DNA of 64,000 nucleotides from Candidatus Wolfebacteria bacterium (GTDB taxonomy: Bacteria; Patescibacteriota; Minisyncoccia; Phycocordibacterales; EsbW-18): contig JAKEFG010000015.1 of NCBI GenBank assembly GCA_022616195.1, positions 9,354 through 73,353 of the forward strand, given 5' to 3'. The notes below the pieces were generated by a model. It was not told where the DNA came from. It did no database searches and saw only the letters and a list, made by a program, of their open reading frames with translations. This document shows positions 5,118 through 62,642 of the stretch, one piece after another. Made by a program: the position numbers and the translations under genes. How positions within the stretch are numbered: the stretch's first letter is position 1; every line of letters begins with the position of its first letter.

Positions 5118-5134
5118 AGTGGTATCATGACAGC

Positions 5135-8330: not shown

Positions 8331-8361
<31 letters not shown>

Positions 8362-9636
8362 GGAGAGGGGGGTGAAATAGACCTGAAACCGTGCGTCTAC
8401 AAGGAGTCGAAGTGTCTTTTGGCACAACGGCGTGCCTATTGAAGAATGAGCCAACGAGTGTACGTGTACTGCTCGGCTAAGTCCTTTGTCGGACGAAGCC
8501 ACAGGGAAACCGAGTGTTAACAGCGCGAACTATAACTTTTTGCCGTGCGTGTGTTTCCTAGGACGCATGGTAAAGAGTTATCTGTAGTACATGTACGACC
8601 CGAAGCCGGGTGATCTACCCATGACCAGGGTGAACCTTACCGAAAGGTGGGGGGAGGCCCGAACCGATACGCGGTACAAAACGTTCGGATGAGTTGTGGG
8701 TCGGAGTGAAAAGCTAATCGAACCCGGTAATAGCTGGTTCTCTCCGAAATAGCTTTAGGGCTAGCGTTATGTGTTTCCCTCGGGGGTAGAGCACTGGAAG
8801 GAGTAGACAGGGCGAAAGCTCGCTTCTCCTATCAAACTCCGAATACCGAGGGTTAGAGCATAGCAGTTAGACTATGGGCGCTAAGGTCCATTGGTCAAAA
8901 GGGAAACAGCCCAGACCTCAAGCTAAGGTCCCTAAATCGACACTAAGTGCACGTAAGGAGGTGCAATTTCTCTGACACTGAGGAGGTTGGCTTAGAAGCA
9001 GCCATCCTTTAAAGAAAGCGTAACAGCTCACTCACTTAGAGATTGTGCGCCGCAAATAATCGGGGCTAAGTGTCGTACCGACGCTGAGGATTGTATCCCG
9101 TTTCGACGGGGTGCAGTGGTAGGAGAGCATTTCTATTGCTATGAAGCCCCTGTGTAAACCGGGGTGGAGCGATGGGAAGAGAGAATGTTGGCACAAGTAA
9201 CCGCAAGGCAGGTGCGATCCCTGCCCGCCGAAATCCCAAGGTTTCCTTGGCAATGTCAATCAGCCAAGGGTTAGTCGGTCCTAAGGAGATGGCGAAAGCC
9301 GTATCCGATGGACACACGGTTAATATTCCGTGACTTCCTGTTCATTCGATGGAGTAACGGAGGGTTGTACACGTTGCACATTATTGGATTTGTGTGCATG
9401 CTTTGAGGGAGTCAGTTAGGCAAATCCGGCTGACGCCACCCCGAGAAGTGTGCGGAATTCCGCTACGGCGGGAGAACAACGTGGAGCACGCTCCCGAGAA
9501 AAACTTCTAAGGTTCATGTCCAGGAAACCGTACCGCAAACCGACACAGGTGGGAAGGTCGAGAAGACCAAGGCGAACGGGTGAGAGATCCTCAAGGAACT
9601 CGGCAAAAAAGCGGCCGTAAGTTCGCAATAAGGCCT

Positions 9637-10028
9637 CCCAGCACTAGATTAAGTTCTTAAATGTAAACAGTAAGGAGAAAAAGCATGACAAATGAGCAGT
9701 ACCTAAAGGCAATCGGTGAAATGAAAAAAATAATACCGGCAGAAATTTTACCGGAGAGGATTGACACAAGCCGTAAATTCTCTGAAACTTCTGTAGAACA
9801 GAAGTTAAAACATTCTCTATATTTGTTAGAGAATGTCCCGACTTTTCTCGAGGTAGGAAAACGAGAAAAATCATCAAGACATTTAGCTTTTGCTCAGGCA
9901 ATCCTTTGGTCTTTGGACATGTTGGCAATCGACCAATTAATGGATTTCAACAGAAGATGATCATAATCGGGTGGTGATGATTATTTTTCACGCTCCCCGA
10001 ATTTTTAAGAATTTAATCTAGTGCTGGG
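9637..10028 (+). other. IVS-like insertion in a variable 23S helix (approx. E. coli helix 63 region), closed by a ~25-bp stem with one G-U; ~340 nt inserted
   Basis: cccagcactagattaagttcttaaa ... tttaagaatttaatctagtgctggg are reverse complements; flanking sequence continues into GACTGTTTACCAAAAACACAG (E. coli ~1770-1785). Confidence 0.65.
9685..9960 (+). CDS. 91-aa protein encoded inside the 23S IVS-like insertion (hypothetical, all-helical)
   Basis: ATG preceded by TAAGGAG 7 nt upstream; terminator-like hairpin plus T-run after the stop (~9955-9990). Confidence 0.55.
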   Translation: MTNEQYLKAIGEMKKIIPAEILPERIDTSRKFSETSVEQKLKHSLYLLENVPTFLEVGKREKSSRHLAFAQAILWSLDMLAIDQLMDFNRR

Positions 10029-10185
10029 CGCAGCGAAAGTATCCCTGGCGACTGTTTACCAAAAACACAGCTCCCTGCGAACTCGTAAGAGGATGTATAG
10101 GGGGTGACGCCTGACCAATGCCAGAAGGTCAAACGCGGAGGGTACATGTGACTTCGGTTATATGTGCTGGACTGCGTAAGCCCTG

Positions 10186-10224
<39 letters not shown>

Positions 10225-10883
10225 CAATTCCTTGTCTGGTAAGTTCAGACGTGCACGAATGGCGTAACGACTGGGGAACTGTCTCGAGGATTCGCCCGGT
10301 GAAAATGCAATGGGGGTGAAGATGCCCTCTACCTGCAGTTAGACGAAAAGACCCCAGGAGCTTTACTGTAACTTGATAGTGGGGGTACGTAGTATATGCG
10401 TAGCATAGGTGGGAGACGTTGAAGCGAAGGTCTCGGCTTTCGTAGAGTCGCCAGTGAAATACCACTCTTATATAGCGTGCTTTCTAACCTCGACGGCAAA
10501 AACGGCGGGGGACAGTATCTGGTAGGCAGTTTTAGTGGGGCGCTATCCTCCTAAAAAGTAACGGAGGAGCCTATTACGGTCAGCTAGGCGCGAATGGAAA
10601 CCGTGCCGATAGTGTAATGGCAGAAGCTGGCCTGACTGCAAGGGGTACATCCCGAGCAGGCGCGAAAGCGGAGCATAGTGAACCGAGAGTTCCCTTTAGA
10701 CGGGGCTCGAGATTAACGGATAAAAGTTACCCTGGGGATAACAGGCTGGTCCTGCCTAAGAGTCCATATCGACGGCAGGGTTCGGCACCTCGATGTCGGC
10801 TCACCGTATCCTGGCGCTGGAGAAGGTGCCAAGGGTTTGGCTGTTCGCCAATTAAAACGGTACGCGAGCTGGGTTCAGACCGT

Positions 10884-11360
10884 TCTGGGCATGAATCATA
10901 AGATATGAATCATGAATAGAGCAGTCTGAATCCGCTCATAACGACACAATCGTTTTTTCGTCTATGAAATAAGTCCCGATTTTGATGTATCAAAATCGAG
11001 GATCCCGACCAGAGCGTCGGGAATAGAATCAACCTAATCACGGCGGTCATGTGTAGTAATACGCATGTATCAAGCTGACCCCGATTTTGATGTATCAAAT
11101 CGAGGATCCCGACCAGAGCGTCGGGACTAATATCGGTGAATTTCTAGCTTCTAGGTAAGAAGAAGGAGGACACCGAGGGAATGGTTCGACTTTGCTCACC
11201 ACGAGCAAATAGAATTCGGCCCGTAGAGACTGAACGTCAGCGTTCCTTACTCATGTTTTGTGTTATACGCGACATGTGTTGGGAATATGCTACAGTCCGA
11301 TCCCGCCGGTAACGGCGGTGTGGCTAGACGCTAGGAGCTAGCGGCTAGTTGCTACAGTTG
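10884..11360 (+). mobile_element. ORF-less group-I-like intron inserted exactly after U2593 (E. coli numbering) of 23S
   Basis: exon reads GGGUUCAGACCGU | CGUGAGACAGG, matching E. coli G2581-U2593 | C2594-G2603; 5' exon ends in U and insert ends in G, as for group I introns; longest ORF <65 aa. Confidence 0.6.
10975..11126 (+). repeat. two direct copies (10975-11022 and 11080-11126) of a 48-bp element, each made of two hairpins (cgattttgat-gta-atcaaaatcg and tcccgac-cagagc-gtcggga), separated by 57 nt, inside the L2593 intron
   Basis: copies identical except one A in the A-run. Confidence 0.85.
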
Positions 11361-11423
11361 CGTGAGACAGGTTGGTCTCCTATCTACTGCAGGCGTTGAT
11401 TCTTGAGGGGAGCTGCTCCTAGT

Positions 11424-12251
11424 AAGTAATTGCTACTCTTCGGAGAGATCCGAAGTGACAATGTGGCTTATAACGGTGAAGCCTTCATATGATTACTGTC
11501 CGAGGATTGTGAATAGCTATTGGTCCAGCTATGGTATAATTCGCTTGCGGACCGTAATCCGCTGCAAGGTAATACCGTGGGAAGTCGATCTCAAACACAC
11601 ACAGCGTATATAGCGGGTTTTCTTGATGGTGACGGCAGTTTGATGCTGCAGATCAAAAAACGATCTGATACAAAACGAGGTATTCGTTTTATGGCAACAA
11701 TCTGTCTGTATCAAGATACTCGCCATGAGAGGCCGCTGTGCTGGATGCGTGAAGTTTTAGGCATTGGATATCTATCTCGACGCCGTGACGGCATTACAGA
11801 GTTACGTATCAATGGCTTTAGTCAGTGCAAAACAATTCTTGAACAACTAGTACCGTATATACGGTTTAAGAAGGTTCAAGTGAGTGCATTGCTCGAGGCA
11901 TGTACGGTACTGTGTACGACGCCGTTTTCAAAGCTCACGAAACAACAGCAGAAGTATTTGGTTGACCGTATTGTGATCATTCAACATGAAAACTATACAA
12001 CCAAGTCAAAAAAGCGTAGGGAAGAGCTGTATGCATGTTTGGATTTGACCCCGTAACGACTTGTTCATGTAGTTGCCACTACATGGCGGACTTGCTGATG
12101 TATTGAATCAGGAATGTATTCCTGACAATCTCAGTGGGTAACATGCCGCCACCCTCGTCCTCCATCTCATGGGGAACGGGTGAAGATATAGTCTATGCTC
12201 CTGGAAACAGGGGAGTAATCTTGTTTTTCAAAAGTGAAACAAGAGATACAT
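11424..12251 (+). mobile_element. 828-nt intron in the sarcin-ricin loop of 23S (after U2656), carrying a LAGLIDADG homing-endonuclease gene
   Basis: flanking exons join to GCUGCUCCUAGU|ACGAGAGGACCGGAGUGGAC, identical to the E. coli SRL sequence; 5' exon ends U and insert ends G. Confidence 0.75.
11520..12056 (+). CDS. single-motif LAGLIDADG homing endonuclease, I-CreI-like
   Basis: YIAGFLDGDGS motif; ~170 aa; GIGYLSRRRDG and LEQLVPYIRFKKVQVSALLEAC segments parallel I-CreI GVGYVRDRGS / FLTQLQPFLKLKQKQANLVLKII; ORF-track start is TTG 11520; in-frame GTG 11577 lies after a perfect TGgTATAAT (11531-11539). Confidence 0.85.
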   Translation: MVQLWYNSLADRNPLQGNTVGSRSQTHTAYIAGFLDGDGSLMLQIKKRSDTKRGIRFMATICLYQDTRHERPLCWMREVLGIGYLSRRRDGITELRINGFSQCKTILEQLVPYIRFKKVQVSALLEACTVLCTTPFSKLTKQQQKYLVDRIVIIQHENYTTKSKKRREELYACLDLTP

Positions 12252-12545
12252 GACGAGAGGACCGGAGTGGACTGACCGCTGGTGTACGAGCTGTCCTGCC
12301 AAGGGCATCGCTCGGTAGCTATGTCGGGACGGGATAACTTCTGAAAGCATCTAAGAAGGAAGCCCACCCCAAGATTAGGAATCATTAAGACCCGTGAGAG
12401 ATGATCACGTTGATAGGCACCAGGTGGAAGCACAGTAATGTGTTGAGCCGAGGTGTACTAATTCGTCGAGTATCTCCTATTAGGGAATCTGAAAATCGCT
12501 TAGTTCCTGCTTTTCTATCGTGTAGGCGACTGACTTTAAGTGTTG

Positions 12546-12656
12546 TGTGTTGGTGGTTCGACGCTGTGGAGACACCCGTTCTCATTCCGAACACGGCAGT
12601 TAAGCACAGTAGTGGCGATGGTACTCGCAAGGGGAGAGTAGCTAGCCGCCAACACA
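12546..12656 (+). rRNA. rrf: 5S ribosomal RNA
   Basis: CCGUUCUCAUUCCGAACACGG..GUAGUGGCGAUGGUACUCGCAAGGGGAGAGUAGCUAGCCGCC; ends pair as helix I. Confidence 0.85.
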
Positions 12657-12675
12657 CAGCACTTAACTTCTAAAA

Positions 12676-12703
12676 CCACCCGTGTGCGCACGGGCGTGTT
12701 TTG
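12676..12703 (+). terminator. hairpin cacccgtg-tgcg-cacgggcgtg followed by TTTTG, immediately after 5S
   Basis: GC-rich near-palindrome plus T-run. Confidence 0.55.
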
Positions 12704-12719
12704 CTACAATATAAGCACT

Positions 12720-13484
12720 ATGTCATGGGCAGGACGTCGCCGCGCACTTTACGTGAGTATCATAAGTGTCGTTGTCTTTGCGTTTTTCATCTGGGTTGGC
12801 TTTCGTATCTTCTATACTCCCCCGACGTGTTTTGATGGCAAGCGGAACGGTGTCGAGGAGGGGATTGATTGTGGCGGTGAGTGCGAACGTGTTTGTAGCT
12901 TTCAGGCGACACCGCCAATCGTATTGTGGAGTAGATTCTTCCAAATTGCACCTGGTGTCTACAACATTGTAGCACTTATTGAAAATCCAAATGTTGGCGT
13001 GGAGGCAAGAGACGTACCCTATGTATTCAAACTATATGATGCAAACGGGTTGTTGGTATACGAGCGTAAGGGGCAAATAACAATCCCCGCAGAGCACTCT
13101 TTTGTTGTTTTTGAAAGTGATATCATAGTTGGAGAGCGTATACCACAAAACAGCTTCTTTGAATTTACTGAGGTGCCGGACTGGCAGCGGCGTGAGAGGG
13201 AAGCCCCGACACTCCGTACAGGTGAACTGGTTTTAAGTAATGTATCAACCGCGCCGCGTCTTACCGCGATGCTCGAAAACACGATGTTTGCTGACGTAGA
13301 AAATATTGCTGTAGTTGCCGTGGTGTTTGACGAGAACGGGAATGCTCTTGCAACATCGCGCACAATTGTGGACCGCCTTGGAGGTGGCGAGCGGACAGCG
13401 CTTATCTTTACGTGGCAAACACCCTTTCCTGTGCCAGCTGCCAAGACAGTTCTCTATCCGGAGGTTCGGGAGAACGAGCGATGA
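12720..13484 (+). CDS. hypothetical N-terminally membrane-anchored protein (extracytoplasmic domain with a CGGECERVC cysteine cluster)
   Basis: ATG 12720 sits 9 nt after TGcTACAAT extended -10; the ORF-track GTG 12684 overlaps the 5S terminator. Confidence 0.7.
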   Translation: MSWAGRRRALYVSIISVVVFAFFIWVGFRIFYTPPTCFDGKRNGVEEGIDCGGECERVCSFQATPPIVLWSRFFQIAPGVYNIVALIENPNVGVEARDVPYVFKLYDANGLLVYERKGQITIPAEHSFVVFESDIIVGERIPQNSFFEFTEVPDWQRREREAPTLRTGELVLSNVSTAPRLTAMLENTMFADVENIAVVAVVFDENGNALATSRTIVDRLGGGERTALIFTWQTPFPVPAAKTVLYPEVRENER

Positions 13485-13579
13485 TAGCCCGACTTCACGG
13501 ACACATTGACCCCGTTAGAAATGTCACGTTAGTCCGGGTAAACACTGACGGAGTGCTCTTGTTTTATTGTAATTGATAT

Positions 13580-14713
13580 ATGAATTCTGCGTTTTCTCGC
13601 ATTTTTAACGGGGTTGATTGGGTTCTTTTTATTGCCACGCTGCCGCTCTGCGCTGCGGGTCTTGTTACAATACATTCGTTTGTCGGGACGGATACGTTTT
13701 TTACCCGTCAAGTGCTCTGGGTTCTTCTTGCTTTTGTGCTCTTCTTTGTGGCGAGTAGCATTGACTGGCGATTTCTCCGCAGGACAAATGTTGTTGTTGC
13801 ACTCTTTGTTGCGAGCATTGTTGCACTTCTTCTGCTTTTTTTGCTTGGCACGCGGACGTTGGGTGCAACATCTCGGTTTGATCTCGGACTTTTTTTCATT
13901 CAGCCGTCGGACCCGATAAAACTCGTACTTATCCTTGTGCTCGCAAAATATTTCTCACGCCGGCACGTTGAGATTGCTCACTATCGACATATTATTGTTT
14001 CCGGTTTCTATACGCTCATTCTCTTTCTGCTGTTATTCCTCCAGCCTGATTTTGGTTCGGCTGTCATTGTCTTCTTGGTGTGGTTTGGTATGGTGCTTGT
14101 CTCGGGTATTTCCAAGAAACACATTCTTCTCGTGTTTGTTACCGGTGCGTTCGTGTTTGGTGGGCTATGGGGCTTTGTGTTTCAGGATTACCAAAAAGAT
14201 CGCATTCGGACATTTCTCAATCCGCTCACGGATCTGCAGGGTGCTGGCTATAATGCTTTTCAGTCGACCATTGCCGTAGGTTCAGGACAGTTTCTCGGTA
14301 AGGGGGTCGGCTATGGCACGCAGTCGCGGCTTGAGTTTCTCCCAGAGTATGAGACGGACTTTATCTTTGCCGCATTCTCCGAGGAGTGGGGGTTTGTAGG
14401 CGTGGTCATTCTCTTTATGCTCTATGGGCTGGTGGTCTGGCGCATTGTCCGTGAGGCGGAGCATGGAGAAAGCAACTTTGAAACACTATTTGCACTCGGG
14501 CTCGCAATCCTTTTCGTGAGTCACTTTATAGTGCATGTTGGCATGAACATCGGACTACTCCCGGTGACCGGCATCACCATGCCCTTTATGAGTTACGGCG
14601 GCAGTCACCTGGCCATGGAGTTTGTAGGACTTGGCATCTTGATGGGCATGCGTGGGTATCGGCGTATCACGCAACCGCACAAACTGCGAGGCGAGTTTGT
14701 GGGTCCGCAGTAG
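13580..14713 (+). CDS. SEDS-family peptidoglycan polymerase (RodA/FtsW)
   Basis: 10-TM protein with GLLPVTGITMPFMSYGGSHL signature. Confidence 0.9.
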   Translation: MNSAFSRIFNGVDWVLFIATLPLCAAGLVTIHSFVGTDTFFTRQVLWVLLAFVLFFVASSIDWRFLRRTNVVVALFVASIVALLLLFLLGTRTLGATSRFDLGLFFIQPSDPIKLVLILVLAKYFSRRHVEIAHYRHIIVSGFYTLILFLLLFLQPDFGSAVIVFLVWFGMVLVSGISKKHILLVFVTGAFVFGGLWGFVFQDYQKDRIRTFLNPLTDLQGAGYNAFQSTIAVGSGQFLGKGVGYGTQSRLEFLPEYETDFIFAAFSEEWGFVGVVILFMLYGLVVWRIVREAEHGESNFETLFALGLAILFVSHFIVHVGMNIGLLPVTGITMPFMSYGGSHLAMEFVGLGILMGMRGYRRITQPHKLRGEFVGPQ

Positions 14714-31134: not shown

Positions 31135-31644
31135 ATGAACCAAAACACCAACCCGGAGGAACTCTTTTTGAAGGCGTATGAGGGGTTTGGTGATTCGGTC
31201 TTTCGGCACTGCTATCTGCGCGTTTCGCCTCGCGAGGAAGCGGTGGATATTACCCAGGAGGCATTCATGAAGGTGTGGGACTATCTCCGCACCGGGCAAG
31301 AAGTTCACAACATGAAGGCGTTTGTGTTTAAGACAGTGAACAATCTCATCATTGACTGGTACCGGAAGAAAAAACCGGTGACGCTTGACGACGAAGAGGC
31401 GCTCCGTATTCCCGACACTCTACACGCTACAGATCCGGAACTCGCGGCGCTCGGCAGAGAAGCACTCACACTTCTTGCGCGCCTTGATGGAGAGTACCGA
31501 ACTGTGGTGGAACTCCGTATCATTGAAGGATTTGGTCCTAAGGAGATTGCCGAGATCTTGGGCGAGACCGAGAACGCGGTATCGGTGCGCATTCACCGCG
31601 GCATTGCAAAACTTCGTGAATTGTATGAAAGCTCACCGGAGTAA
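31135..31644 (+). CDS. ECF (group IV) sigma factor
   Basis: sigma70 region 2 (AFMKVWDYL..NNLIIDWYRKKK) and region 4 (EGFGPKEIAEILGETENAVSVRIHRGIAKLRE). Confidence 0.88.
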   Translation: MNQNTNPEELFLKAYEGFGDSVFRHCYLRVSPREEAVDITQEAFMKVWDYLRTGQEVHNMKAFVFKTVNNLIIDWYRKKKPVTLDDEEALRIPDTLHATDPELAALGREALTLLARLDGEYRTVVELRIIEGFGPKEIAEILGETENAVSVRIHRGIAKLRELYESSPE

Positions 31645-31648
31645 CGTC

Positions 31649-32848
31649 ATGGAAGAAGAATTTGCACAACTGAAGAGTCAACTTGAAACAATTCGTCTCT
31701 CTGCGGCGGAGCGTGAGCGCGTGCATGCGGTGCTTTCGGAATACGTCACGCACCGGCCTGTGTCGCGCGGCTCTGCGCCGGCGCCTGTGGGATACGCGTG
31801 GTTTGCCGTACACCGTTTTGTCGCGGTGGTTGCCGTAGCGCTTGTCGTAGTACTTTTTGGTGGAACGGTCTCATATGCCGCGGAGGGGGCGCTTCCCGGC
31901 GATGCGCTCTATGCGGTGAAAGTGGGCGTCAACGAGCCGCTTCGCGACACGTTCGCGCGCACGCCCGAACATAGAGCGACGCGGGAGGTTGATAAGGTGA
32001 ATCGTCGGCTTGCGGAAGCGGAGACGCTTGCCGCAGAAGGGCGTCTCAATGCGGCGCTCCGTGAGGATATCGAAACGCGTGTCACTGTGCATCTTGCCGC
32101 GGCGGAAGCACGCGTCGCGATGCTCAAAACCGACACGGATATCGCCGAAACGCTTGATGCGACGCTTGACGTGCACGACAGTATCCTCGCCTCGCTTGGG
32201 GAAGACGAGGTGGACGGCGAGGAAGTGGGCGTGCTTCTTGCGCGCGTGCGCACCGTGACGTCTCTACGGGCACACGAATACGGAAGGAGCGGGGGCGAGG
32301 AGCCGCAGGCACCAATGATGGCGCTCCAGACACCGTCTCCCTCTGCGGACGAAGAAGAACAACAAGCGGCGGCGGAAAGCGGCGCAGAGGCGGACCTTGC
32401 GGCAGAGATAACGGAGGTGGGGGCGGAGCTGGATACACTCCAGGAACGTGCTCTCTTAGGGCGTCCCAACGTGCGCATTTCGGTGCGCGAGGAGGCGGAG
32501 CGTCTTCTCAACGCGGCTGACAGAGCGCTTGCGGATGCCGACAAGGAACTTGCGAAAGGAGAATTTGAAACAGCGGAAGAAAAACTCACACTCGCGCGGC
32601 GCGCACTGCACCGCGCGACGATCGTGCTCAACGCCGCACTGCGGCTTCCGGAGAACATCAAACTTTTTCCCGTCCGGCTTCCGGAAAACGGTAGTGACGC
32701 TGACGCGCAAAATGGCGACGGCGACGTTGAGAGCGCGTCGGTGGGGAGTGACCGAGAGGGCAATGACGACGGTGAAGACAGAGAAGAATCACGGCGCGGC
32801 TCGTCACGCGAAGACGACGATGGACGGACGCGAAGGGGAGCAGGTTGA
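31649..32848 (+). CDS. putative anti-sigma factor (cytoplasmic N-term, one TM, DUF5667-like extracytoplasmic helical domain, highly acidic tail)
   Basis: starts 5 nt after the ECF stop; TM AWFAVHRFVAVVAVALVVVLFGG; Ala/Arg/Glu-rich coiled region; C-terminal DADAQNGDGDVESASVGSDREGNDDGEDREE. Confidence 0.7.
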   Translation: MEEEFAQLKSQLETIRLSAAERERVHAVLSEYVTHRPVSRGSAPAPVGYAWFAVHRFVAVVAVALVVVLFGGTVSYAAEGALPGDALYAVKVGVNEPLRDTFARTPEHRATREVDKVNRRLAEAETLAAEGRLNAALREDIETRVTVHLAAAEARVAMLKTDTDIAETLDATLDVHDSILASLGEDEVDGEEVGVLLARVRTVTSLRAHEYGRSGGEEPQAPMMALQTPSPSADEEEQQAAAESGAEADLAAEITEVGAELDTLQERALLGRPNVRISVREEAERLLNAADRALADADKELAKGEFETAEEKLTLARRALHRATIVLNAALRLPENIKLFPVRLPENGSDADAQNGDGDVESASVGSDREGNDDGEDREESRRGSSREDDDGRTRRGAG

Positions 32849-32878
32849 GAATATCCTGAAATTTTAGGATGCGGATGG

Positions 32879-34780
32879 TTACTTACTCGTGAACCGGTAC
32901 ACGCCGTCCCAACGCTCGGGGGGCTGCTGTTTGAATTCCCGCGCCCGCTCAAGAAGGAGCGCGGACGGACCGTCTGGTTCTGTAGCGAGCGCCTCGTTGA
33001 ATGCAGCGATTGCTCTGTCCCAGTCGCCCCGCTCGTACGCCGCCCGTCCGCGCTCATAGTGTTCAAAAAGTGTTTGGTGTGCGGGTGTCACGCCGCGCGC
33101 GATGAGCTCATAGAGGGCGCGCGGCTCGCTTTTGCCTTTGACCGCGACGCGGTCAAGGAGACGTGTGGGAAGGTCGGGTAGGGCGGCAATTGCGTCGCGG
33201 GTGTTTTCTCCAATAAGGATAGGGACGCCGTACGCTTTGGTGAGCCCCTCGAGGCGCGACGAGAAGTTCACTTCGTCGCCGACGATGGTGTAGTTGAAAC
33301 GTTTCGCGGAGCCCATGTTACCCACGACGACCTCGCCCGTCGAGATGCCGATGCCGATGCGGATTTCCGGCTTACCGTCTTTCTTCCATGTTTTGTTGAG
33401 CATATCAAGTATGGCAATCATGGCGAGCGCTCCGCGGCAGGCGTGCTCCGCGTGCGTGGGGTCGTCAATCGGTGCCCCCCAGAACGCCATAATCGCATCC
33501 CCGATGTATTTATCGACGAGTCCGCGATGTTCCAAAATAGTGTCCGTCATTGCCGAGAGATATTCGTTGAGGCGCTCCGTGAGTTCTTCGGGCGAGAGCG
33601 ACTCCGAGAGTGTGGTGAATCCGCGGATGTCGGAGAAGAGAATGGAGAGCGTTTTTCGTTTGCCCCCGAGCGAGAGCTTTGAAGGGTCGCGGACGAGTTC
33701 GTTCACAACCTCGGGTGCAAGGTAGTACTGGAACGTGGTGCGGATGAATTGTTTTTCGCGCGCCTCGGTTGCGTATTGGTACACGACGCCTCCCCCTGCG
33801 GCGAGGATGAACGCGAGCTCAAGATAGAGCACGGGAGTGACGAGATACACGCCGAAGAGCGCCGCCGCCACGAGGTAGATGAGGCCGACGCCGAGAGCGA
33901 ACAGAACGATGAGCGGCAGGGTTTTTCGGATGAATGCCGCGAGAAGCGTTGCGAGAAATGCGGCGAGGGCGATGCCAAGGACACCCCACGGGCGCGGCAA
34001 ATCGCGGAAGCGGCTCGGCGATTCAAGTGTCGCGAGCGCGTTCGCCTGAAACTCAACGCCCGGCATGAGCCCCACGGGCGTTTCAACGCTGTCTTTGAGG
34101 TCGGGCGCGGTGGCGCCGATGAGCACCGTTTTGTGAGCGAAAACGTCTTCGGGTACCGTACCCTCGAGCACGTCTATAAGCGAAATGGTCGGGAACGTTT
34201 CGGCAGGCCCCCGCCAATCAATTCGTGCGGTTTCGGGAATTACCGCAGTTTTTCCCGCAAGCGCTTCCGCGAAGCTCGGCCTACCGAGCGCCATGAGACG
34301 CACAGCGCCGTCCGCGTCGAGGGAGACATTCACCGCCCCGAGGGAAACGTTCTCTCCCGTGAGGGAAGGGAGCGGCCCGAAGCTGTTTCCGGTGCGCGGG
34401 TCTATAAAGAGTGGCAGGACGACGCGCCCCGGAAACGTCCGGAGCGCCTCCGCAAGCCGGTTATCGTCAAATGCGCCCACTCGCGACGGCTCCGCGAAAT
34501 TAACGTCAATGCCGACGACCTCGGCCCTACGGAGGCGCGCGATGGCGTCGGCAAACACGGCGCGCGGCCACGGCCACTGACCGACTGCGCGCAAACTTCT
34601 GTCGTCAATCGCGATAATGAGAATGTCTCGCGGCGGGTCTTTTCGTATAACAAACCGGTCAAGGATATTTTCCTCGGCGGTATCAAGCGCTCCGGAGAGG
34701 TAGAGCGCTCCGGCGAGAAGGGCGGCGATGAGCGCGACGAGCGCGAGACCGATGTGCCGACGGTGGAGAAAAACACCCAT
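32879..34780 (-). CDS. CHASE2 sensor - class III adenylate/guanylate cyclase (with C-terminal TPR-like segment)
   Basis: CHASE2 region (ILIIAIDDRSLRAVGQWPWPRAVFADAIARL), TM bundle, cyclase core LSILFSDIRGFTTLSE..KYIGDAIMAFWGAP..GISTGEVVVGNMGS. Confidence 0.88.
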   Translation of the reverse strand: MGVFLHRRHIGLALVALIAALLAGALYLSGALDTAEENILDRFVIRKDPPRDILIIAIDDRSLRAVGQWPWPRAVFADAIARLRRAEVVGIDVNFAEPSRVGAFDDNRLAEALRTFPGRVVLPLFIDPRTGNSFGPLPSLTGENVSLGAVNVSLDADGAVRLMALGRPSFAEALAGKTAVIPETARIDWRGPAETFPTISLIDVLEGTVPEDVFAHKTVLIGATAPDLKDSVETPVGLMPGVEFQANALATLESPSRFRDLPRPWGVLGIALAAFLATLLAAFIRKTLPLIVLFALGVGLIYLVAAALFGVYLVTPVLYLELAFILAAGGGVVYQYATEAREKQFIRTTFQYYLAPEVVNELVRDPSKLSLGGKRKTLSILFSDIRGFTTLSESLSPEELTERLNEYLSAMTDTILEHRGLVDKYIGDAIMAFWGAPIDDPTHAEHACRGALAMIAILDMLNKTWKKDGKPEIRIGIGISTGEVVVGNMGSAKRFNYTIVGDEVNFSSRLEGLTKAYGVPILIGENTRDAIAALPDLPTRLLDRVAVKGKSEPRALYELIARGVTPAHQTLFEHYERGRAAYERGDWDRAIAAFNEALATEPDGPSALLLERAREFKQQPPERWDGVYRFTSK

Positions 34781-34783
34781 GGT

Positions 34784-35860
34784 TTATTGTTGCCCTTGAG
34801 GATAGGCAACTGTGCCGGTGGGCTCACTGCCGTTTGCGCCTGCGGACTCTCTCTCGGGACTCGGCTCCGCGACGGAGAGGGCGTCGGAGAGCGTTGCGCG
34901 CACTCCCGCGGCGTTGACGACACTCACATCAAAGGTACCCGCGCTATTGAGGAGCCGTGCATCAAAGTAGAGCGTGCTGTCCTGCGGTATGAAAAATTCA
35001 GCGATACTTTGGGAACCCACAAAGACCTCTGTGACGTCGGTGAACCCCGAGCCGGTGAGGACAATATTGTCTTCTTCGCCCAACACCGCCGCCGAGGGGT
35101 TCACCTGGATGAGCGTGAGCGGAGGTGGCGGGGATATGTCGGGCTCCGCGGGCGGCATCGCGAACTCCGTGTCGATTTCTGCAGGCGGCTCCGCGAAGTC
35201 GGGGTTGTTGAACCCGAACCACTCGCTTGAAGTGTCTTCGGGCGAGAGCGGCTCTATGATGATGCCGTCCGTAAAGCTCACCGTCGCTTTTGAGCCCGCT
35301 TCAACGGTCTCAAGCGTGTTGGGAAGGCGCTCGCCGGTTTCGGGGTTCTTTTGTATGACATCCACACTATTCTCCGTTACCAGTATGCTCGTACTTGCGG
35401 CGCTCGCGTTCGTGCCGAATGAAGTGCCGCGCACCGCGGCAACCGCGTGCTGTGTTTCTATTTCGTAAAACTCCCCCTGTTCAAGCGATTTTTCAATGCG
35501 CGACCAGAGGTTTCCCGTATGGAGCGCGAGTGCGGTGCGCCCGGCGTCTCCCGCGGCGACGGTGAGCTCCGTGTTCTCGCCGACGACGGTGATGCTCGTA
35601 CCCGGCGCCTCAATCAAGGCGCGCCCCGTATCGTCGGTGCGTACAATCGCGCCGGGGAAGAGCTCCATGCTACTGGTGGCGGCAGTAAAACTTACACTCG
35701 ATGTTGCCCGGACAGAGAGCGCGGCGGAGAGTACGGTGAGGCGGGAGGGGAATGCCGCACCCTCGTTGGGTGTTTCCGCGTCACCGGATAAGAGAAGCCA
35801 CGCGCCACCCGCGACAAGAAGCACTACGAGGGCAAGAACGGTTTTTGCCCACAGTTTCAT
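34784..35860 (-). CDS. FecR-domain protein with signal peptide and C-terminal Ig-like region; forms an operon with the CHASE2 cyclase (4-nt gap)
   Basis: HAVAAVRGTSFGTNASAASTSILVTENSVDV resembles the FecR (PF04773) core; N-terminal MKLWAKTVLALVVLLVAGGAWLLLS. Confidence 0.75.
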   Translation of the reverse strand: MKLWAKTVLALVVLLVAGGAWLLLSGDAETPNEGAAFPSRLTVLSAALSVRATSSVSFTAATSSMELFPGAIVRTDDTGRALIEAPGTSITVVGENTELTVAAGDAGRTALALHTGNLWSRIEKSLEQGEFYEIETQHAVAAVRGTSFGTNASAASTSILVTENSVDVIQKNPETGERLPNTLETVEAGSKATVSFTDGIIIEPLSPEDTSSEWFGFNNPDFAEPPAEIDTEFAMPPAEPDISPPPPLTLIQVNPSAAVLGEEDNIVLTGSGFTDVTEVFVGSQSIAEFFIPQDSTLYFDARLLNSAGTFDVSVVNAAGVRATLSDALSVAEPSPERESAGANGSEPTGTVAYPQGQQ

Positions 35861-35918
35861 GAACCTATCCTACGCTTCTCGCGGGTGCGGAGCAAGGAAA
35901 GGTGAAAGACCTGTTATT

Positions 35919-36332
35919 TTATTGCCAGACCGCGAGAATGATGCCCATCACAAGCAGATTTACGAGGTCGTAGCCGATGTTGAGGAAGTAGAGTTTCCAC
36001 GGGCGCATCTCCCAGAGAACGGAGCCGAGCTTGGTGGTCACGAAGAAACCGAGCCAGACGAGAAAGCCGAGCGTGAGACCGCCGGTCACGCCCGCGACAC
36101 CGAGTGAAGAAATGAGGTAGGCGAGCGTGAACGCGGTGACGAGCGCGCCGATGAAGCCAATGATATACGACTTCATCATCCCCTTCTTTTTACCCGCATC
36201 CATCTGTAGAGGGGTGATACCCATAAGCGCCATCCACGGTTTGCCGAAGAGCGGACCGTACCAGAGGGAGCCAATGCCCATGGCGACGATGCCCGCAACA
36301 AGGACAGCAAGATAGTTGATATCTCCAAACAT
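35919..36332 (-). CDS. DUF1761-family membrane protein
   Basis: MFGDINYLAVLVAGIVAMGIGSLWYGPLFGKPW N-terminus, 4 TM. Confidence 0.65.
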   Translation of the reverse strand: MFGDINYLAVLVAGIVAMGIGSLWYGPLFGKPWMALMGITPLQMDAGKKKGMMKSYIIGFIGALVTAFTLAYLISSLGVAGVTGGLTLGFLVWLGFFVTTKLGSVLWEMRPWKLYFLNIGYDLVNLLVMGIILAVWQ

Positions 36333-58149: not shown

Positions 58150-58689
58150 ATGGCGTTTTCAGATCCACAGCGAAATATTGAACAACTCGGACTTTCGGAG
58201 GGTATGCGGGTGGCTGATTTTGGTGCGGGGTCGGGATTCTACACAGTTGCTGCGTCGGGGAAGGTCGGAATGGACGGACGAGTGTATGCAATTGATATTC
58301 AATCCGGGCTTCTCGGCCGCATACAGGACACTGTACACGGCGTACAAACGAGTAACATTGAGGTATTACAGGGGGATCTTGAGCACGAGGGCGGATCAAA
58401 ACTCAGGGACGGGACCGCTGATGTGGTGCTTGCTGCCAACATACTCTTCCAGGTGACTCGCAAGGAAGTCTTTCTTAAAGAAGCGTGGCGTGTTCTGAAA
58501 TCAGGCGGTCGGCTCCTACTGGTTGATTGGAGGGGTGCGTTTGGTGGTGTTGGTCCGCGTCAACGCGATGTGGTGGCAGAAACAGCCGCTGAGCAACTGC
58601 TCAGGAATGCTGGATTTAGTATAGAAAGACGTATTCAAGCGGGGGAACACCATTATGGGATAGTCGCGCGCAGGCCAAAAGGTGCATAA
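58150..58689 (+). CDS. class I SAM-dependent methyltransferase
   Basis: VADFGAGSGFY (motif I), acidic motif II, LKSGGRLLLVDW. Confidence 0.85.
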   Translation: MAFSDPQRNIEQLGLSEGMRVADFGAGSGFYTVAASGKVGMDGRVYAIDIQSGLLGRIQDTVHGVQTSNIEVLQGDLEHEGGSKLRDGTADVVLAANILFQVTRKEVFLKEAWRVLKSGGRLLLVDWRGAFGGVGPRQRDVVAETAAEQLLRNAGFSIERRIQAGEHHYGIVARRPKGA

Positions 58690-58702: not shown

Positions 58703-59986
58703 ATGAATTTTAAAGCTATTATATTGGGATTGTTTGTCTTTTTTCTCATTGCAGGTGCTATTGCATTTGCAACGTTTCGTGGCGGGCGTGGCGACGCGAC
58801 ACCCATCAGTCCAGTGATGCTTTGGGGTACGCTCTCAGCACGTGAAGTGAATGCTCTCATTCAGCACATACAGATTGAATTGGACACGGACTTTCCCGTG
58901 GTGTATCGCGAGATATCCCCGGATAATTTTGATCGTGAACTCGTTGAGGCGCTCGCCTCCGGGCGCGGCCCCGACATGATTTTTCTTCCACAAGATCTTA
59001 TCATGCGACATCGCGATAAACTCTACGCTATTCCATTTGAATCGTTTTCCGAGCGCGACTTTCTGGACAGGTTCATAGAGGAAGGGGAGCTCTATCTCTC
59101 ATCTTCAGGGAGCTTGGCGTTGCCCTTCGCTGTTGACCCTCTCGTGCTCTATTGGAATCGGACGTTGTTTGCAAACGCGGGTATTGCGGAGCCGCCGCGT
59201 TTCTGGGACGAAATGCTGGTTCTTGTAAGTCGACTTACTGAGCGCGATGAGCGTGGTAATATTACGCGGAGTGCGATTGCACTTGGGGAGTTCGGGAATG
59301 TTACGCATGCAAAAGAGATTATCTCTGCACTCATCATGCAATCCGGGAATCCGATTGTCTCTGGTACGAGTGATGCACCAAACGTTGTTCTCACTGAGCG
59401 TCTCTTGGCTCCGGAGCCGCCGACTGCGGCGGCGCTCCGCTTCTACACAGAATTTGCGAATCCGGTGAAGCCGACGTACTCGTGGAATCGCTCGCTCCCG
59501 CCGTCACAATCGGCGTTCCTCGCCGGGGATACGGCACTCTACATCGGGTTTGCGAGCGAATTGTTTGAGTTGCGTGAGAAAAACCCCAATCTGAACTTTG
59601 ACGTTGCTGCCCTGCCGCAGATTCGTGGTGCTACGGCAGAGAAAACCTTCGGTGCGATGCACGGCGCCGCGATTCTCAAGAGCTCCCCGAACACCACGAG
59701 TGGCTTTCAAGTCTTGAGCATTCTCACTGGCCAAGACGTGCTCAAGGCATGGGAGGGTGAAACGGGACTCCCGCCGGTACGGCGGGATCTTCTCTCGGTG
59801 CCGCAGACAGACGCGTTTCGCTCGGTTTTCTACAACTCGGCGCTCACTGCGGACGCATTTCTTGACCCCAGTCCTTCCGCGACGGGCATCATTTTCCGTG
59901 ATATGGTGGAGAATATAACGTCGGGTAGGGCAGACGTGAGTAATGTGGTGCAAGATGCGTCGGCCCGCCTTGAACAGCTGTTTTAA
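58703..59986 (+). CDS. membrane-anchored extracellular solute-binding-protein-like (SBP family 1) protein
   Basis: VLYWNRTLFANAGIAEPPRFWDEM resembles the MalE-type LYYNKDLF..PPKTWDEL signature; no permease or ATPase genes adjacent. Confidence 0.6.
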   Translation: MNFKAIILGLFVFFLIAGAIAFATFRGGRGDATPISPVMLWGTLSAREVNALIQHIQIELDTDFPVVYREISPDNFDRELVEALASGRGPDMIFLPQDLIMRHRDKLYAIPFESFSERDFLDRFIEEGELYLSSSGSLALPFAVDPLVLYWNRTLFANAGIAEPPRFWDEMLVLVSRLTERDERGNITRSAIALGEFGNVTHAKEIISALIMQSGNPIVSGTSDAPNVVLTERLLAPEPPTAAALRFYTEFANPVKPTYSWNRSLPPSQSAFLAGDTALYIGFASELFELREKNPNLNFDVAALPQIRGATAEKTFGAMHGAAILKSSPNTTSGFQVLSILTGQDVLKAWEGETGLPPVRRDLLSVPQTDAFRSVFYNSALTADAFLDPSPSATGIIFRDMVENITSGRADVSNVVQDASARLEQLF

Positions 59987-59991
59987 CGACT

Positions 59992-60447
59992 ATGTATTCT
60001 CTCCGGCGGAGCGCAGGTTCCACAATTATCACCGGCTTGATGCTCGTGACCTTGGTAGGGCTTTTTGCCGGTCCGGTTGTATATGCACAGGATGAAGACC
60101 CGAGCCGATTTTTTGGTTTGGTGCCTTGTACCGGCGTTGCTCCTGACCCAGACCGGGTTGGGCCGCCCGCACCGAACGAACACCCATGCACCTTTACCGA
60201 TCTGGTAGCGGCAGCACAAAAGGTTATTGACTGGCTACTCTATGCCGCGGTCTTTTTTGCGGCTACTCTCTTCAGCTGGGCGGGCTTTCTCTATGTAACG
60301 TCGGCAGGGGAAACGGGGAAGGTGAGTCGGGCGCACGGCATATTCAAAAATGTCCTCATTGGGTTTATTATAGCGTTAGCGGCATGGCTCATCGTGCACA
60401 CCATTACCACGGCGCTTCTTAGGGATCAGTCGCTTCCGCTATTGTAA
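59992..60447 (+). CDS. pilin-like small membrane protein, paralog 1 (signal peptide + two hydrophobic helices)
   Basis: MYSLRRSAGSTIITGLMLVTLVGLFAGPVVYAQDE; C-terminal LLYAAVFFAATLFSWAGFLYVTSAGETGKVSRAHGIFKNVLIGFIIALAAWLI. Confidence 0.7.
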   Translation: MYSLRRSAGSTIITGLMLVTLVGLFAGPVVYAQDEDPSRFFGLVPCTGVAPDPDRVGPPAPNEHPCTFTDLVAAAQKVIDWLLYAAVFFAATLFSWAGFLYVTSAGETGKVSRAHGIFKNVLIGFIIALAAWLIVHTITTALLRDQSLPLL

Positions 60448-60453
60448 ACATAC

Positions 60454-60870
60454 ATGACAGAGAATTGTAGAAAACTTTTTTGGGCACTTGTGCTTTTTGT
60501 TATTGCTTGGACGCCTCGTCTTGTGTCTGCTCAACGGGGAGGGGGAGGAAATACTCCTCCTCCGCCCGGGGGCGGGGGGAACGCGCCTCCTCCGCCGGCT
60601 CCTACTGCCGTCAAGCTCACGAACCCGCTCAAAGCAGAGAGCCTCGCTGGCTTTATAGAACAGGTGCTCATTATTGTCCGCGACATCGGCTTCCTGGTGG
60701 CGGTGTTCTTTATTGTCTATGCCGGATTTCTCTTTGTGACGGCGCGCGGTGACGAGACGCAGCTCACCAAGGCAAAGGGCGCGTTTCTCTGGGCGGTTGT
60801 TGGTACAGCCGTGCTTCTTGGTGCCTGGATATTTGCGAAAGCAATCCAAGGCACCGTTAACGCATTGTAG
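60454..60870 (+). CDS. pilin-like small membrane protein, paralog 2 (contains a GGGGN-PPPP tandem repeat)
   Basis: signal peptide ..LVSAQRG; FLVAVFFIVYAGFLFVTARGDETQLTKAKGAFLWAVVGTAVLLGAWIF. Confidence 0.7.
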   Translation: MTENCRKLFWALVLFVIAWTPRLVSAQRGGGGNTPPPPGGGGNAPPPPAPTAVKLTNPLKAESLAGFIEQVLIIVRDIGFLVAVFFIVYAGFLFVTARGDETQLTKAKGAFLWAVVGTAVLLGAWIFAKAIQGTVNAL

Positions 60871-60883
60871 GGTATACTGTTCT

Positions 60884-61249
60884 ATGAGAACGATGAGAAA
60901 GGTTACAGAGAAGATACTGCAGCTCACTGTACTTGGTTTTGGTGCCATGCCTCTTGTGGTGTCGGCAGAGACATTAGAGAGTCTCATCAGAACAAAACTT
61001 CTGATTTTGGTGAACCCCATTATCCTGGTGGTGAGCGGACTAGCACTAGTTTTCTTTTTCTGGGGGATTGCAAAGTTGATACTTTCCGCCGGTGATGAAA
61101 AGGGGCGCGAGGAGGGTAAGAAGGTGATGCTCTGGGGCATCATCGCTCTTTTCGTTCTGTTTTCTGTCTGGGGTATAGTACAGTTGTTACAACGAAGTCT
61201 GTTTGATGGAGTATTGCCCCCACCTGCGCCGTTCTCATCGGACTCATGA
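60884..61249 (+). CDS. pilin-like small membrane protein, paralog 3
   Basis: signal peptide ..AMPLVVSAE; LALVFFFWGIAKLILSAGDEKGREEGKKVMLWGIIALFVLFSVWGIV; ATG 5 nt after TATACT. Confidence 0.7.
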   Translation: MRTMRKVTEKILQLTVLGFGAMPLVVSAETLESLIRTKLLILVNPIILVVSGLALVFFFWGIAKLILSAGDEKGREEGKKVMLWGIIALFVLFSVWGIVQLLQRSLFDGVLPPPAPFSSDS

Positions 61250-61324
61250 GTTATTTTATATCTCCAGTATTTTGTTTCGATGATGTTGGTTGATTACTAT
61301 AATAATAAGCGATATGTTACGTGT

Positions 61325-61738
61325 ATGGCATCTCACTATAAAAGCGGAGTAGCAATAGTCAGCGCACTCGTGTTATTCGCGGTCATGGTGCCGCGGGTTG
61401 TTTTTGGGCAAACCATAACAGGGATACTTGATACAGCGGGTGGTATTGTCGGTCGGCTGATACCGATAGTCGCCGGGGTTGCTCTACTCGTTTTCTTTTG
61501 GGGACTTGTCAGGTTTATTGCGAGCGCGGGAAGCGAAGACGGGCGAAAGGCGGGAAAACAAATAATGCTCTGGGGCATCATCGCGCTCTTTGTCATGATA
61601 GCGATTTGGGGCATCGTTGCATTTATAAGGGTCTCTCTTGGTGTCAATCAGGAGGATAATCCGAACGCTCCCTGCCTCAGAGGTCTTCCTGGGTGTCCTA
61701 GTTCTGGGGGTTCCAGTGGCGGCACTCAGTCAGTGTAA
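61325..61738 (+). CDS. pilin-like small membrane protein, paralog 4
   Basis: VALLVFFWGLVRFIASAGSEDGRKAGKQIMLWGIIALFVMIAIWGIV; Gly/Ser-rich tail. Confidence 0.7.
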   Translation: MASHYKSGVAIVSALVLFAVMVPRVVFGQTITGILDTAGGIVGRLIPIVAGVALLVFFWGLVRFIASAGSEDGRKAGKQIMLWGIIALFVMIAIWGIVAFIRVSLGVNQEDNPNAPCLRGLPGCPSSGGSSGGTQSV

Positions 61739-61882
61739 AGGAAGAGTTCAGTGGATTCCGACTAATCCACAGCATCTTGATAGTATTGTATGATCCTGTG
61801 CTATCCTTAAACGTGTAGTCGGCACGCCGCATCGCTGGCGTCATTAATCAAAATAGTAGTAAGTTTCTATAATATAAATAGT

Positions 61883-62242
61883 ATGAAAACGTTTCAGAAA
61901 GTTCTTATTCTCACGGGCGCGGCGCTTCTGCCGGTCGCAACGGTGCATGCCCAACTCGGGAACATTGAAGATATCGTTGATGGTATTGGTCGGATTGTCA
62001 GCCTTTTGACACCGATTGTCGTCGGTATCGCGCTTCTCGCGTTCTTTTGGGGTCTTGCGAAGTTCATCTTCAGCGCTGGTGATGAAGAGGCGCGCAAGGC
62101 GGGCAAACAAATCATGATTTATGGTATTATCGCTCTCTTTATCATGATTTCCATCTGGGGCATCGTCCGCTTCATCGGTGACGCGTTGGATATTGATCCT
62201 GAAAGAAACCCCGGGGCAGTTCCCGGCGTTCCCATTCCCTAG
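61883..62242 (+). CDS. pilin-like small membrane protein, paralog 5
   Basis: signal peptide ..LPVATVHAQ; IALLAFFWGLAKFIFSAGDEEARKAGKQIMIYGIIALFIMISIWGIV; ATG 9 nt after consensus TATAAT. Confidence 0.7.
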   Translation: MKTFQKVLILTGAALLPVATVHAQLGNIEDIVDGIGRIVSLLTPIVVGIALLAFFWGLAKFIFSAGDEEARKAGKQIMIYGIIALFIMISIWGIVRFIGDALDIDPERNPGAVPGVPIP

Positions 62243-62306
62243 TTTTCGTCCTACACTACACCTTTCGAGCCGACACGGGTAGGTGTTGGTTTGTACCACA
62301 ACTTCC

Positions 62307-62603
62307 ATGCCCACCACCTCTATTGAAGTATTGGTCCCGAAGGTGTACGACACGATAGTCGTGCCGATATTCTGGGTGCTCTTTAGTGTCGCCTTCATTG
62401 TCTTTTTCTGGGGCGTGGTTGAATTTATTCGGGATGCGGGGAGCGAAGATGGTAGGAAGAAAGGACGCCAACACATGCTCTGGGGCATCATCGGGATTCT
62501 CATAATGTCCTCGGTATTCGGTATCACTAGGGTACTGATTGATACCGTCGGCTTGAGCGGCGACAAAGGAGGCGTTACGGGTCCGCCCGTGCTTCAGCCG
62601 TAG
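62307..62603 (+). CDS. pilin-like small membrane protein, paralog 6 (no obvious signal peptide)
   Basis: VAFIVFFWGVVEFIRDAGSEDGRKKGRQHMLWGIIGILIMSSVFGIT; ORF-track start 62283 is GTG. Confidence 0.65.
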   Translation: MPTTSIEVLVPKVYDTIVVPIFWVLFSVAFIVFFWGVVEFIRDAGSEDGRKKGRQHMLWGIIGILIMSSVFGITRVLIDTVGLSGDKGGVTGPPVLQP

Positions 62604-62615
62604 TAAAAAACCTTA

Positions 62616-62642
62616 GCCGCCCCCGCGCTTCGCGGGGGTGGC
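62616..62642 (-). terminator. GC-rich hairpin (gccgcccccgcg-ctt-cgcgggggtggc) with T-tract on the minus strand; terminates the convergent minus-strand gene
   Basis: 12-bp stem; minus strand reads ..AAGGTTTTTTACTAC after it. Confidence 0.55.

Follow-up and report, generated by a model that had tools for sequence, protein, structure and literature searches.

What does a tandem array of six small membrane-protein genes make in a patescibacterial cell, and are its products alternative versions of one pilin or different subunits of one structure? We asked this of the array at 59992-62603 of the window, by which we mean the whole 64,000-nucleotide stretch of the Candidatus Wolfebacteria bacterium contig JAKEFG010000015.1 that was analyzed. 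The array consists of six consecutive open reading frames (ORFs) on the + strand, with products of 106 to 151 aa. With moderate confidence, we favor reading the locus as a Paceibacteria-type patescibacterial pilin array, in which six VirB2-like genes end a methyltransferase/binding-protein block and encode subunits of one structure linked to a type IV secretion system (T4SS). The genes are listed here with the scores of their products against the Pfam family PF18895 and with the paralog types, A to E, that are defined below.

59992-60447, + strand: pilin-like paralog 1, type A; 151 aa; PF18895 32.9 bits; signal peptide, two-cysteine N-terminal segment, hairpin
60454-60870, + strand: pilin-like paralog 2, type B; 138 aa; PF18895 39.3 bits; GGGGN(T/A)PPPP x2 linker, NPL motif
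60884-61249, + strand: pilin-like paralog 3, type C; 121 aa; PF18895 44.6 bits
61325-61738, + strand: pilin-like paralog 4, type D, first copy; 137 aa; PF18895 33.9 bits
61883-62242, + strand: pilin-like paralog 5, type D, second copy; 119 aa; PF18895 45.3 bits
62283-62603, + strand: pilin-like paralog 6, type E; 106 aa from GTG; PF18895 28.8 bits; no signal peptide

All six proteins reach the Pfam gathering score of PF18895 (T4SS_pilin), with 28.8 to 45.3 bits compared to the required 26.6, and five of the copies also have concordant precomputed PF18895 matches on an identical Logan contig. All six also match NCBIfam NF045849 below its cut-off (16.6 to 30.8 bits versus 40; E values of 1.7e-7 to 4.6e-3). 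Copy 5 is 100% identical to the NCBI protein MCI0619847.1 and copy 4 corresponds to MCI0619846.1, both of which are named "pilin [Candidatus Wolfebacteria bacterium]" and come from a 75-kb contig; a look-up of exact records returned none for the 137-aa form of copy 4 and none for the 418-aa protein encoded downstream of the array. With a profile of the copy 5 type, we found 14,265 representatives of 50%-identity clusters at E<=1e-3, and the family is therefore very large. Thus, all six proteins belong to a VirB2-like T4SS pilin-like family, an assignment that public databases already hold. The initial annotation had proposed VirB2/TrbC-type pilin-like paralogs from their topology; PF18895 membership of every copy now puts that proposal on stronger ground, and the profile searches matched no type IV pilin or holin family. 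More distant relationships are fainter. An orthologous gene in one related locus (L003) has a weak match to PF04956 (TrbC), and a profile of the D-type proteins weakly matches the pKM101 pilus subunit TraM (8cw4; E value of 0.021). A profile over all five types found no match to any solved pilin. In a Foldseek search, the archaeal Ced pilus subunit 8dfu ranked 5th, with a TM-score of 0.62 on the target and a nonsignificant E value of 1.7; fold searches of this kind do not separate two-helix hairpins of different families.

Hydropathy analysis gave the same architecture for all six proteins: two strongly hydrophobic 19-aa segments with a short charged loop between them. Read by eye, the N termini of copies 1 to 5 carry the pattern of a signal peptide (n-region, h-region, and AxA-type site), with predicted cleavage at VYA|Q, VSA|Q, VSA|E, VFG|Q, and VHA|Q, in that order. 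Only 40 nt lie between the copy 5 stop codon and copy 6, too few for copy 6 to have a signal peptide; copy 6 would be 98 aa long if started at the ATG at 62307. Copy 4 has an alternative ATG at 61280 that would give 152 aa. These results uphold the earlier description of six same-strand genes with one architecture and a signal peptide in five of them. An AlphaFold2 model of copy 5 (pLDDT of 83) places the predicted helices at residues 25 to 63 and 68 to 101.

The copies differ widely in sequence, with pairwise identities of 15 to 52% across the array. Overall identity is 26% between copies 1 and 2, 35 to 52% among copies 3 to 6, and 15 to 25% between these two groups. Paralogs 4 and 5 are the closest, at 52% overall and 71% in the hairpin. 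Within the hairpin, copies 3 to 6 share 42 to 71% identity, and copies 1 and 2 share 15 to 27% with them. Thus, the conserved core reported initially (FFWG..SAGDEE..GKQIM.WGIIALF) applies to copies 3 to 6 and not to copies 1 and 2. The mature N-terminal segment of 35 to 50 aa reported alongside it holds, conversely, for copies 1 and 2 but not for copies 3 to 5, which have about 15 to 20 aa before helix 1. In copy 2, the linker GGGGNTPPPP/GGGGNAPPPP occupies residues 29 to 48 (nucleotides 60538-60597). It had been described as an internal tandem duplication, which is true of the protein; the two DNA copies are identical at 22 of 30 positions, and Tandem Repeats Finder did not report a duplication at the DNA level.

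To compare the array across genomes, we took the binding protein that is encoded directly upstream of copy 1 as the query against one genome per species, which gave 80 related loci at 38 to 51% identity. These are Paceibacteria-type assemblies labelled Adler-, Taylor-, and Nomurabacteria, Paceibacterota, and others, with several third-party ones labelled "Saccharibacteria." The 388 array proteins were clustered by normalized BLAST score, with thresholds set after inspection, and fell into five types.

Type A: window copy 1; found in 26 to 37 loci, always first; conserved GLVPCxGxxC motif
Type B: window copy 2; 76 members in 75 loci, essentially one per locus; NPL motif
Type C: window copy 3; 50 members in 40 loci, mostly the third gene from the end of the array; no feature noted
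Type D: window copies 4 and 5; usually the penultimate gene, multiplied in some loci (up to five-fold); own promoter (predicted)
Type E: window copy 6; a single copy in each of 70 loci, at the end of the array in 64 of them; consensus without a signal peptide

The order A<=B<=C<=D<=E was kept in all 74 loci that have at least two typed genes (74/74). The commonest pattern is BCDE, and the window has ABCDDE, with a 29-residue insert between the cysteines of the type A motif in copy 1. Each window copy is 39 to 43% identical to orthologues of its own type, compared to 25 to 33% between types, and type-specific N-terminal motifs are kept across genomes. Since same-type orthologues are closer to a window copy than the other types are, the differences between the copies predate the clade and are maintained. 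Judged by these comparisons, the paralogs represent five conserved, ordered, and ancient types, and the fixed order of ancient types points to differentiated subunits rather than to ongoing diversification. The initial annotation was thus right about paralogy, and the array is kept in related genomes; its proposal that the exposed part is diversifying does not fit differences that are old and fixed, type motifs that are conserved, and a colinear order.

The family also includes single-chain fusions of two or three hairpin modules in which the inner modules have no signal peptides. Such natural fusions are as expected of subunits that assemble side by side. Examples are P0123 (353 aa), P0124 (333 aa), and P0127 (227 aa), with Gly/Pro-rich linkers and a signal peptide on the first module only. 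About a third of the best family matches are multi-module polypeptides, among which gene-calling artefacts are possible.

The spacing of the genes bears on how they are transcribed. The gaps before copies 1, 2, and 3 are 5, 6, and 13 nt, which indicates cotranscription. In the related arrays, median gaps are 5 to 18 nt, except before the D-type gene, where the median is 79 nt; in the window, the 144-nt gap before copy 5 is the only large one in the array. Most copies had been credited with a -10 element and thus a promoter of their own. The hexamers exist (TATACT at 60873 and TATAAT at 61298 and 61868). However, -10-like hexamers lie near the start codons of a minority of the orthologous genes (4 to 46%, depending on type), and the only -35/-10 pair that a consensus scan placed directly upstream of a copy is at 61766-61794, before copy 5. 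The results therefore do not support a separate promoter for every gene. The single pair lies in the following region.

61751-61794, + strand: promoter/operator-like region before the second D-type gene, with an inverted repeat, an ATCCACA box, and a promoter-like site

In this region, a 7-bp inverted repeat is formed by GTGGATT (61751-61757) and AATCCAC (61764-61770). The window box AATCCACA spans 61764-61771, with ATCCACA at 61765-61771 and the inverted copy at 61751-61757, and the consensus scan placed a promoter-like site, TCCACA-17-TATGAT, at 61766-61794. Overall, the region before copy 5 has no significant RNA structure (z of -0.5). A corresponding arrangement is present in 39 related arrays, where TATCCACA-N7-cTTGTg is followed after about 16 nt by TGnTACAnT, about 69 nt before the D-type ATG. 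It can be seen, for instance, at 12075 in locus L043 and at 11983 in L054. The 7-mer ATCCACA occurs 44 times on the + strand of these short intergenic stretches, with fewer than one occurrence expected. The 8-mer TATCCACA is at chance level elsewhere in the loci, and the box is found only before the next-to-last pilin gene. These patterns argue that, of the array genes, the D-type gene alone has its own conserved promoter, a predicted element marked by the invariant TATCCACA box. The classical DnaA-box consensus is TTATCCACA. The D-type box is equal to it at 8 to 9 of 9 positions and is, we presume, DnaA-box-like.

The array follows two genes on the same strand.

58150-58689, + strand: class I SAM-dependent methyltransferase gene; Pfam Methyltransf_11/31/25, with generic matches only in NCBIfam
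58703-59986, + strand: gene for a MalE-like solute-binding protein (family 1) that has a membrane anchor at its N terminus; Pfam SBP_bac_1, 1.8e-14

The binding protein matches maltodextrin-binding proteins of the PDB with E values of 1e-7 to 1e-10, and its gene stops 5 nt before copy 1. There is no permease or ATPase gene near it. A pilin array lies downstream of the binding-protein gene in all of the related loci that have DNA there (76/76), on the same strand and starting within about 100 nt; complete arrays mostly have 4 to 7 genes and reach 10. In 73 of 75 loci, the gene immediately before that of the binding protein is the methyltransferase gene. Inserted genes make the spacing between gyrA and the binding-protein gene range from 610 to 6560 nt, and the genes downstream of the array differ by locus. 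With flanks this variable around a constant set of methyltransferase, binding-protein, and pilin genes, this block is the conserved unit. However, gyrA is within 10 kb in 51 of 52 loci, so gene order is fairly stable across the region and adjacency alone is weak evidence of linkage. Thus, the linkage of the array to the methyltransferase and binding-protein genes is suggestive but not proven. In this large clade, the array travels with the binding-protein gene and not with virB4.

Arrays of this kind have been described before. Wang et al. (2023; PMC10633639) showed that Southlakia epibionticum needs its six-gene array in order to grow as an epibiont: SEML1_0014-0019 are six PF18895 genes, each scored essential, beside VirB6-like, PrgI, and VirB4 genes. 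Two of these pilins also match PF04956, weakly. Like the window array, that of Southlakia epibionticum ML1 comprises six tandem same-strand PF18895 genes of about 100 to 185 aa with divergent sequences and a common hairpin; a larger gap (84 nt) separates its last gene from the others, and its host is also a Patescibacterium. The two differ in their surroundings. The Southlakia array lies divergent from VirB6, PrgI, and VirB4 in one cluster that has no binding-protein gene, and its essentiality was measured, whereas the window array is detached from T4SS genes, follows the methyltransferase and MalE-like genes, and is known here from sequence. The organisms also differ in class (Paceibacteria for the window and Saccharimonadia for Southlakia).

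As reported in the sections covered here, the survey of Quinonero-Coronel et al. (2025; PMC12102498) searched 3,035 Patescibacteria genomes with PF18895 and PF04956. It lists 441 arrays of 2 to 11 pilin genes in 383 assemblies, with a mean identity of 25% and a maximum of 54%, and a pilin gene near virB4 in 1,135 of 1,948 assemblies; the arrays are most abundant in Microgenomatia and Saccharimonadia. The window array is a VirB2 array as defined there, with at least two tandem pilin genes, PF18895 membership, and identities of 15 to 52% compared to the survey mean of about 25% and maximum of 54%. Since arrays have been published (PMC10633639, PMC12102498, PMC12857230), this kind of array is already known, and the novelty implied by the initial annotation does not stand; two of the window proteins are even named "pilin" at NCBI. 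The accessions of the window proteins are not in the supplementary table of the survey, its main text has no match for "SBP" or "solute-binding," and its covered sections do not describe a fixed type order, a binding-protein link, or an internal promoter (PMC12102498). Three features are new: an architecture of five types in fixed order, the linkage of the array to the methyltransferase and binding-protein genes, and the putative conserved D-type promoter.

Other systems offer partial likenesses. The VirB2/TrbC pilins (T-pilus VirB2, TraM of pKM101, and TraA of F) are small proteins that, like those of the window, have a signal peptide and two hydrophobic helices separated by a short polar loop. 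Unlike those systems, the window has no adjacent virB operon and its host is monoderm, and where they use one major pilin plus VirB5, the window has several differentiated paralogs. The Ced DNA-import pilus of Aeropyrum pernix (8dfu) combines a VirB2-like hairpin pilin with an MPF-FATA-related machine in a single-membrane organism; however, it has no sequence similarity to the window proteins, and it imports DNA. Mbov_0395 and MMCAP2_0565 of Mycoplasma integrative and conjugative elements (NF045849) are also small two-helix proteins, in their case of a monoderm T4SS. These are single genes on mobile elements, whereas the window has a chromosomal array.

Family membership and the situation in other Patescibacteria classes are the basis for reading the products as T4SS pilins, and the ordered types, the D-type promoter, and the binding-protein linkage favor a multisubunit structure over a variation cassette. 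Under the reading that we favor, types A to D would reach the membrane through Sec and have their signal peptides removed by signal peptidase I, type E would enter the membrane without a leader, and all types would fold into an N-out/C-out hairpin whose loop, which contains K/R, lies on the cytoplasmic side. Types A to E would be nonredundant subunits of one envelope structure. Type D, with copy 5 as the candidate, may be its abundant and separately transcribed major subunit, and types A, B, C, and E may be minor, initiating, tip, or base subunits. The structure would most likely be a pilus or stalk built by an MPF-FATA-like T4SS (VirB4, VirB6, and PrgI) that is presumably encoded elsewhere in most Patescibacteria, near dnaA in Paceibacteria, and it may serve contact or exchange with a host cell. 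From the comparative results, the D-type protein stands out as the one to localize and to study structurally first. The T4SS-like system with its several "pilins" is essential in the one Patescibacteria species tested, and this locus leaves the picture of its role unchanged.

Several results weigh against a T4SS pilin array. First, there are no VirB4/VirD4, VirB6, or PrgI genes in the 64-kb window. Our Pfam scans of the window covered ORFs of at least 400 aa that are not overlapped by a longer annotated gene and gave no VirB4/VirD4 family match, in agreement with the earlier observation that the window has no such ATPase; among the scanned ORFs, 5003-6430 had no family match and 31385-32848 had only a subthreshold match to DUF5667. 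An 18.4-kb Logan contig reached via copy 5, which extends 3.5 kb beyond the array, has no T4SS genes either. Second, clustering of ORFs and Pfam searches with the largest unclassified ones recognized no VirB4, VirD4, VirB6, or PrgI within 10 kb of the arrays in the 80 related loci. Third, VirB4 is listed in three and absent in three of the six array-bearing genomes that could be traced (L026, L036, L038, L039, L057, and L071) in Table S1 of the survey (PMC12102498). Fourth, none of the six window proteins matches PF04956 (TrbC) in Pfam at E<=1. Fifth, a complex embedded in the membrane accounts for fusions with six membrane helices no less well than an extruded filament does. Finally, a review treats a pilus for the PF18895 family as a possibility, and none has been observed for any member.

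By Pfam, none of the large unclassified ORFs of the related loci is VirB4, and this holds also for the single ORF among them that has a Walker A motif (710 aa, in L047). The three VirB4-negative genomes are GW2011_GWC2_48_17 and two Taylorbacteria assemblies of 0.85 to 1.03 Mb (PMC12102498, Table S1). All six traced genomes are metagenome assemblies and are therefore too little to decide on VirB4. In the survey, virB4 is present in 2,417 of 3,035 Patescibacteria genomes, or about 80%, and in Paceibacteria it tends to be located close to dnaA and dnaN (PMC12102498).

The VirB4-negative genomes raise the possibility that the block works without a T4SS, and the alternative that survives best builds on it. 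Here, the block would be self-contained, and the hairpin proteins would form a hetero-oligomer in the membrane or at the surface that holds or serves the MalE-like protein, for example in uptake or in adhesion to host glycans, without VirB4. The invariable position of the array after the binding-protein gene (76/76) and of the methyltransferase gene before it (73/75) speaks for this, as does the integrity of the block in the face of insertions upstream, towards gyrA, and of variable downstream genes. A binding protein without a permease gene, the lack of a nearby VirB4, the three of six traceable genomes listed as VirB4 negative (PMC12102498, Table S1), and the fused proteins with four to six helices fit as well. 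However, with gyrA within 10 kb in nearly every locus (51/52), adjacency is weak evidence, and the VirB4-negative assemblies, which are metagenomic, may be incomplete, with an n of 6 set against a prevalence of 80% (PMC12102498). In addition, PF18895 proteins are encoded inside T4SS clusters in other classes, and the Southlakia cluster does without a binding-protein gene. We consider a T4SS-independent apparatus unlikely.

A second alternative is that the copies are interchangeable versions of one pilin that vary an exposed surface for host range or evasion, as has been proposed for the multicopy VirB2 of Bartonella and Anaplasma. This was suggested in the covered sections of the survey (PMC12102498) and by the initial annotation. 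The low identity between copies (15 to 52%), the doubling of type D in the window and its up to five-fold multiplication in other loci, and the variable low-complexity repeat of the copy 2 linker would all suit such a cassette. However, a type order without exception in 74 loci would not, and neither would types B and E that occur in essentially one copy per locus or genes packed at 5 to 18 nt. Each type has kept its N-terminal motif though the neighboring binding protein has diverged to 38% identity, and all six Southlakia genes are individually essential (PMC10633639). A variation cassette is thus distinctly improbable.

A bolder version of the T4SS-independent idea can be drawn from the same comparisons, and we regard it as a long shot. 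In it, the Paceibacteria block of methyltransferase, binding protein, and (A)BCDE would be an autonomous envelope apparatus that no longer depends on VirB4. Its five differentiated VirB2-like hairpins would come together in fixed stoichiometry, as is suggested by the fusions of two and three modules, in a membrane or surface structure that presents the orphan binding protein or serves it. The DnaA-box-like operator would turn on the major subunit and thereby couple host interaction to the replication state.

It is extremely improbable that the array belongs to an unrelated family of small membrane proteins (holins, bacteriocin immunity proteins, or type IV pilus [T4P] pilins) that mimics the VirB2 topology, for although the two-helix hairpin is a common shape that fold searches cannot discriminate, all six proteins pass the PF18895 cut-off, Pfam gave no holin or N_methyl family at E<=1, no copy has a G|F/M xxxE prepilin motif in its first 40 to 45 residues, the neighbors are chromosomal housekeeping genes rather than phage genes, and the absence of relatives among the 2.9 million viral contigs of IMG/VR led us to reject a phage origin.

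Returning to the pilin array itself, its downstream border is marked by the following element.

62616-62642, no strand assigned: G+C-rich 12-bp hairpin, terminator-like, between the array and the convergent downstream gene

The hairpin has a folding energy of -28.1 kcal/mol (z of -4.1) on the + strand and of -25.7 kcal/mol (z of -3.6) on the - strand, where a T-run follows it. The next gene runs on the minus strand from 62729 to beyond 64000 and encodes a multihelix membrane protein in a stretch of 60% G+C. It was initially called an unrelated G+C-rich membrane protein gene, and that description is accurate. Its homologues are found only in a few close relatives, and the protein is therefore not part of the module. 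At full length, it is about 492 to 500 aa long. Past it, the Logan contig has a 123-aa ORF and then, at the contig end, an ORF with a faint LAGLIDADG_3 match; the corresponding stretch of L001 is 10847-13643.

The window as a whole is ordinary chromosome, with leuS, 23S and 5S rRNA genes, ftsW, the RNase R gene, rpoB, rpoC, dnaG, rpoD, gyrA, and others. There is no 16S gene in the 64 kb. Within 7814-12654, the 23S rRNA match covers 3152 nt compared to 2925 in the model, so it has insertions inside, and a LAGLIDADG homing-endonuclease ORF lies at 11520-12056, in a 1.6-kb stretch between the 23S and 5S genes. The ORF at 5003-6430, between a Sigma70_r4/HARE-HTH gene and yceG, is conserved; its product, of about 430 aa (or 475 aa if translation starts at the first start codon), has membrane helices near the N terminus and no Pfam or NCBIfam match, and its L003 orthologue has a precomputed match to PF26449 (DUF8128). 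Finally, 32001-36000 has about 61% G+C compared to about 51% around it and was possibly acquired horizontally. On the minus strand, this segment encodes a CHASE2-adenylate/guanylate cyclase-TPR protein (32879-34780) and a FecR-domain protein (34784-35860).

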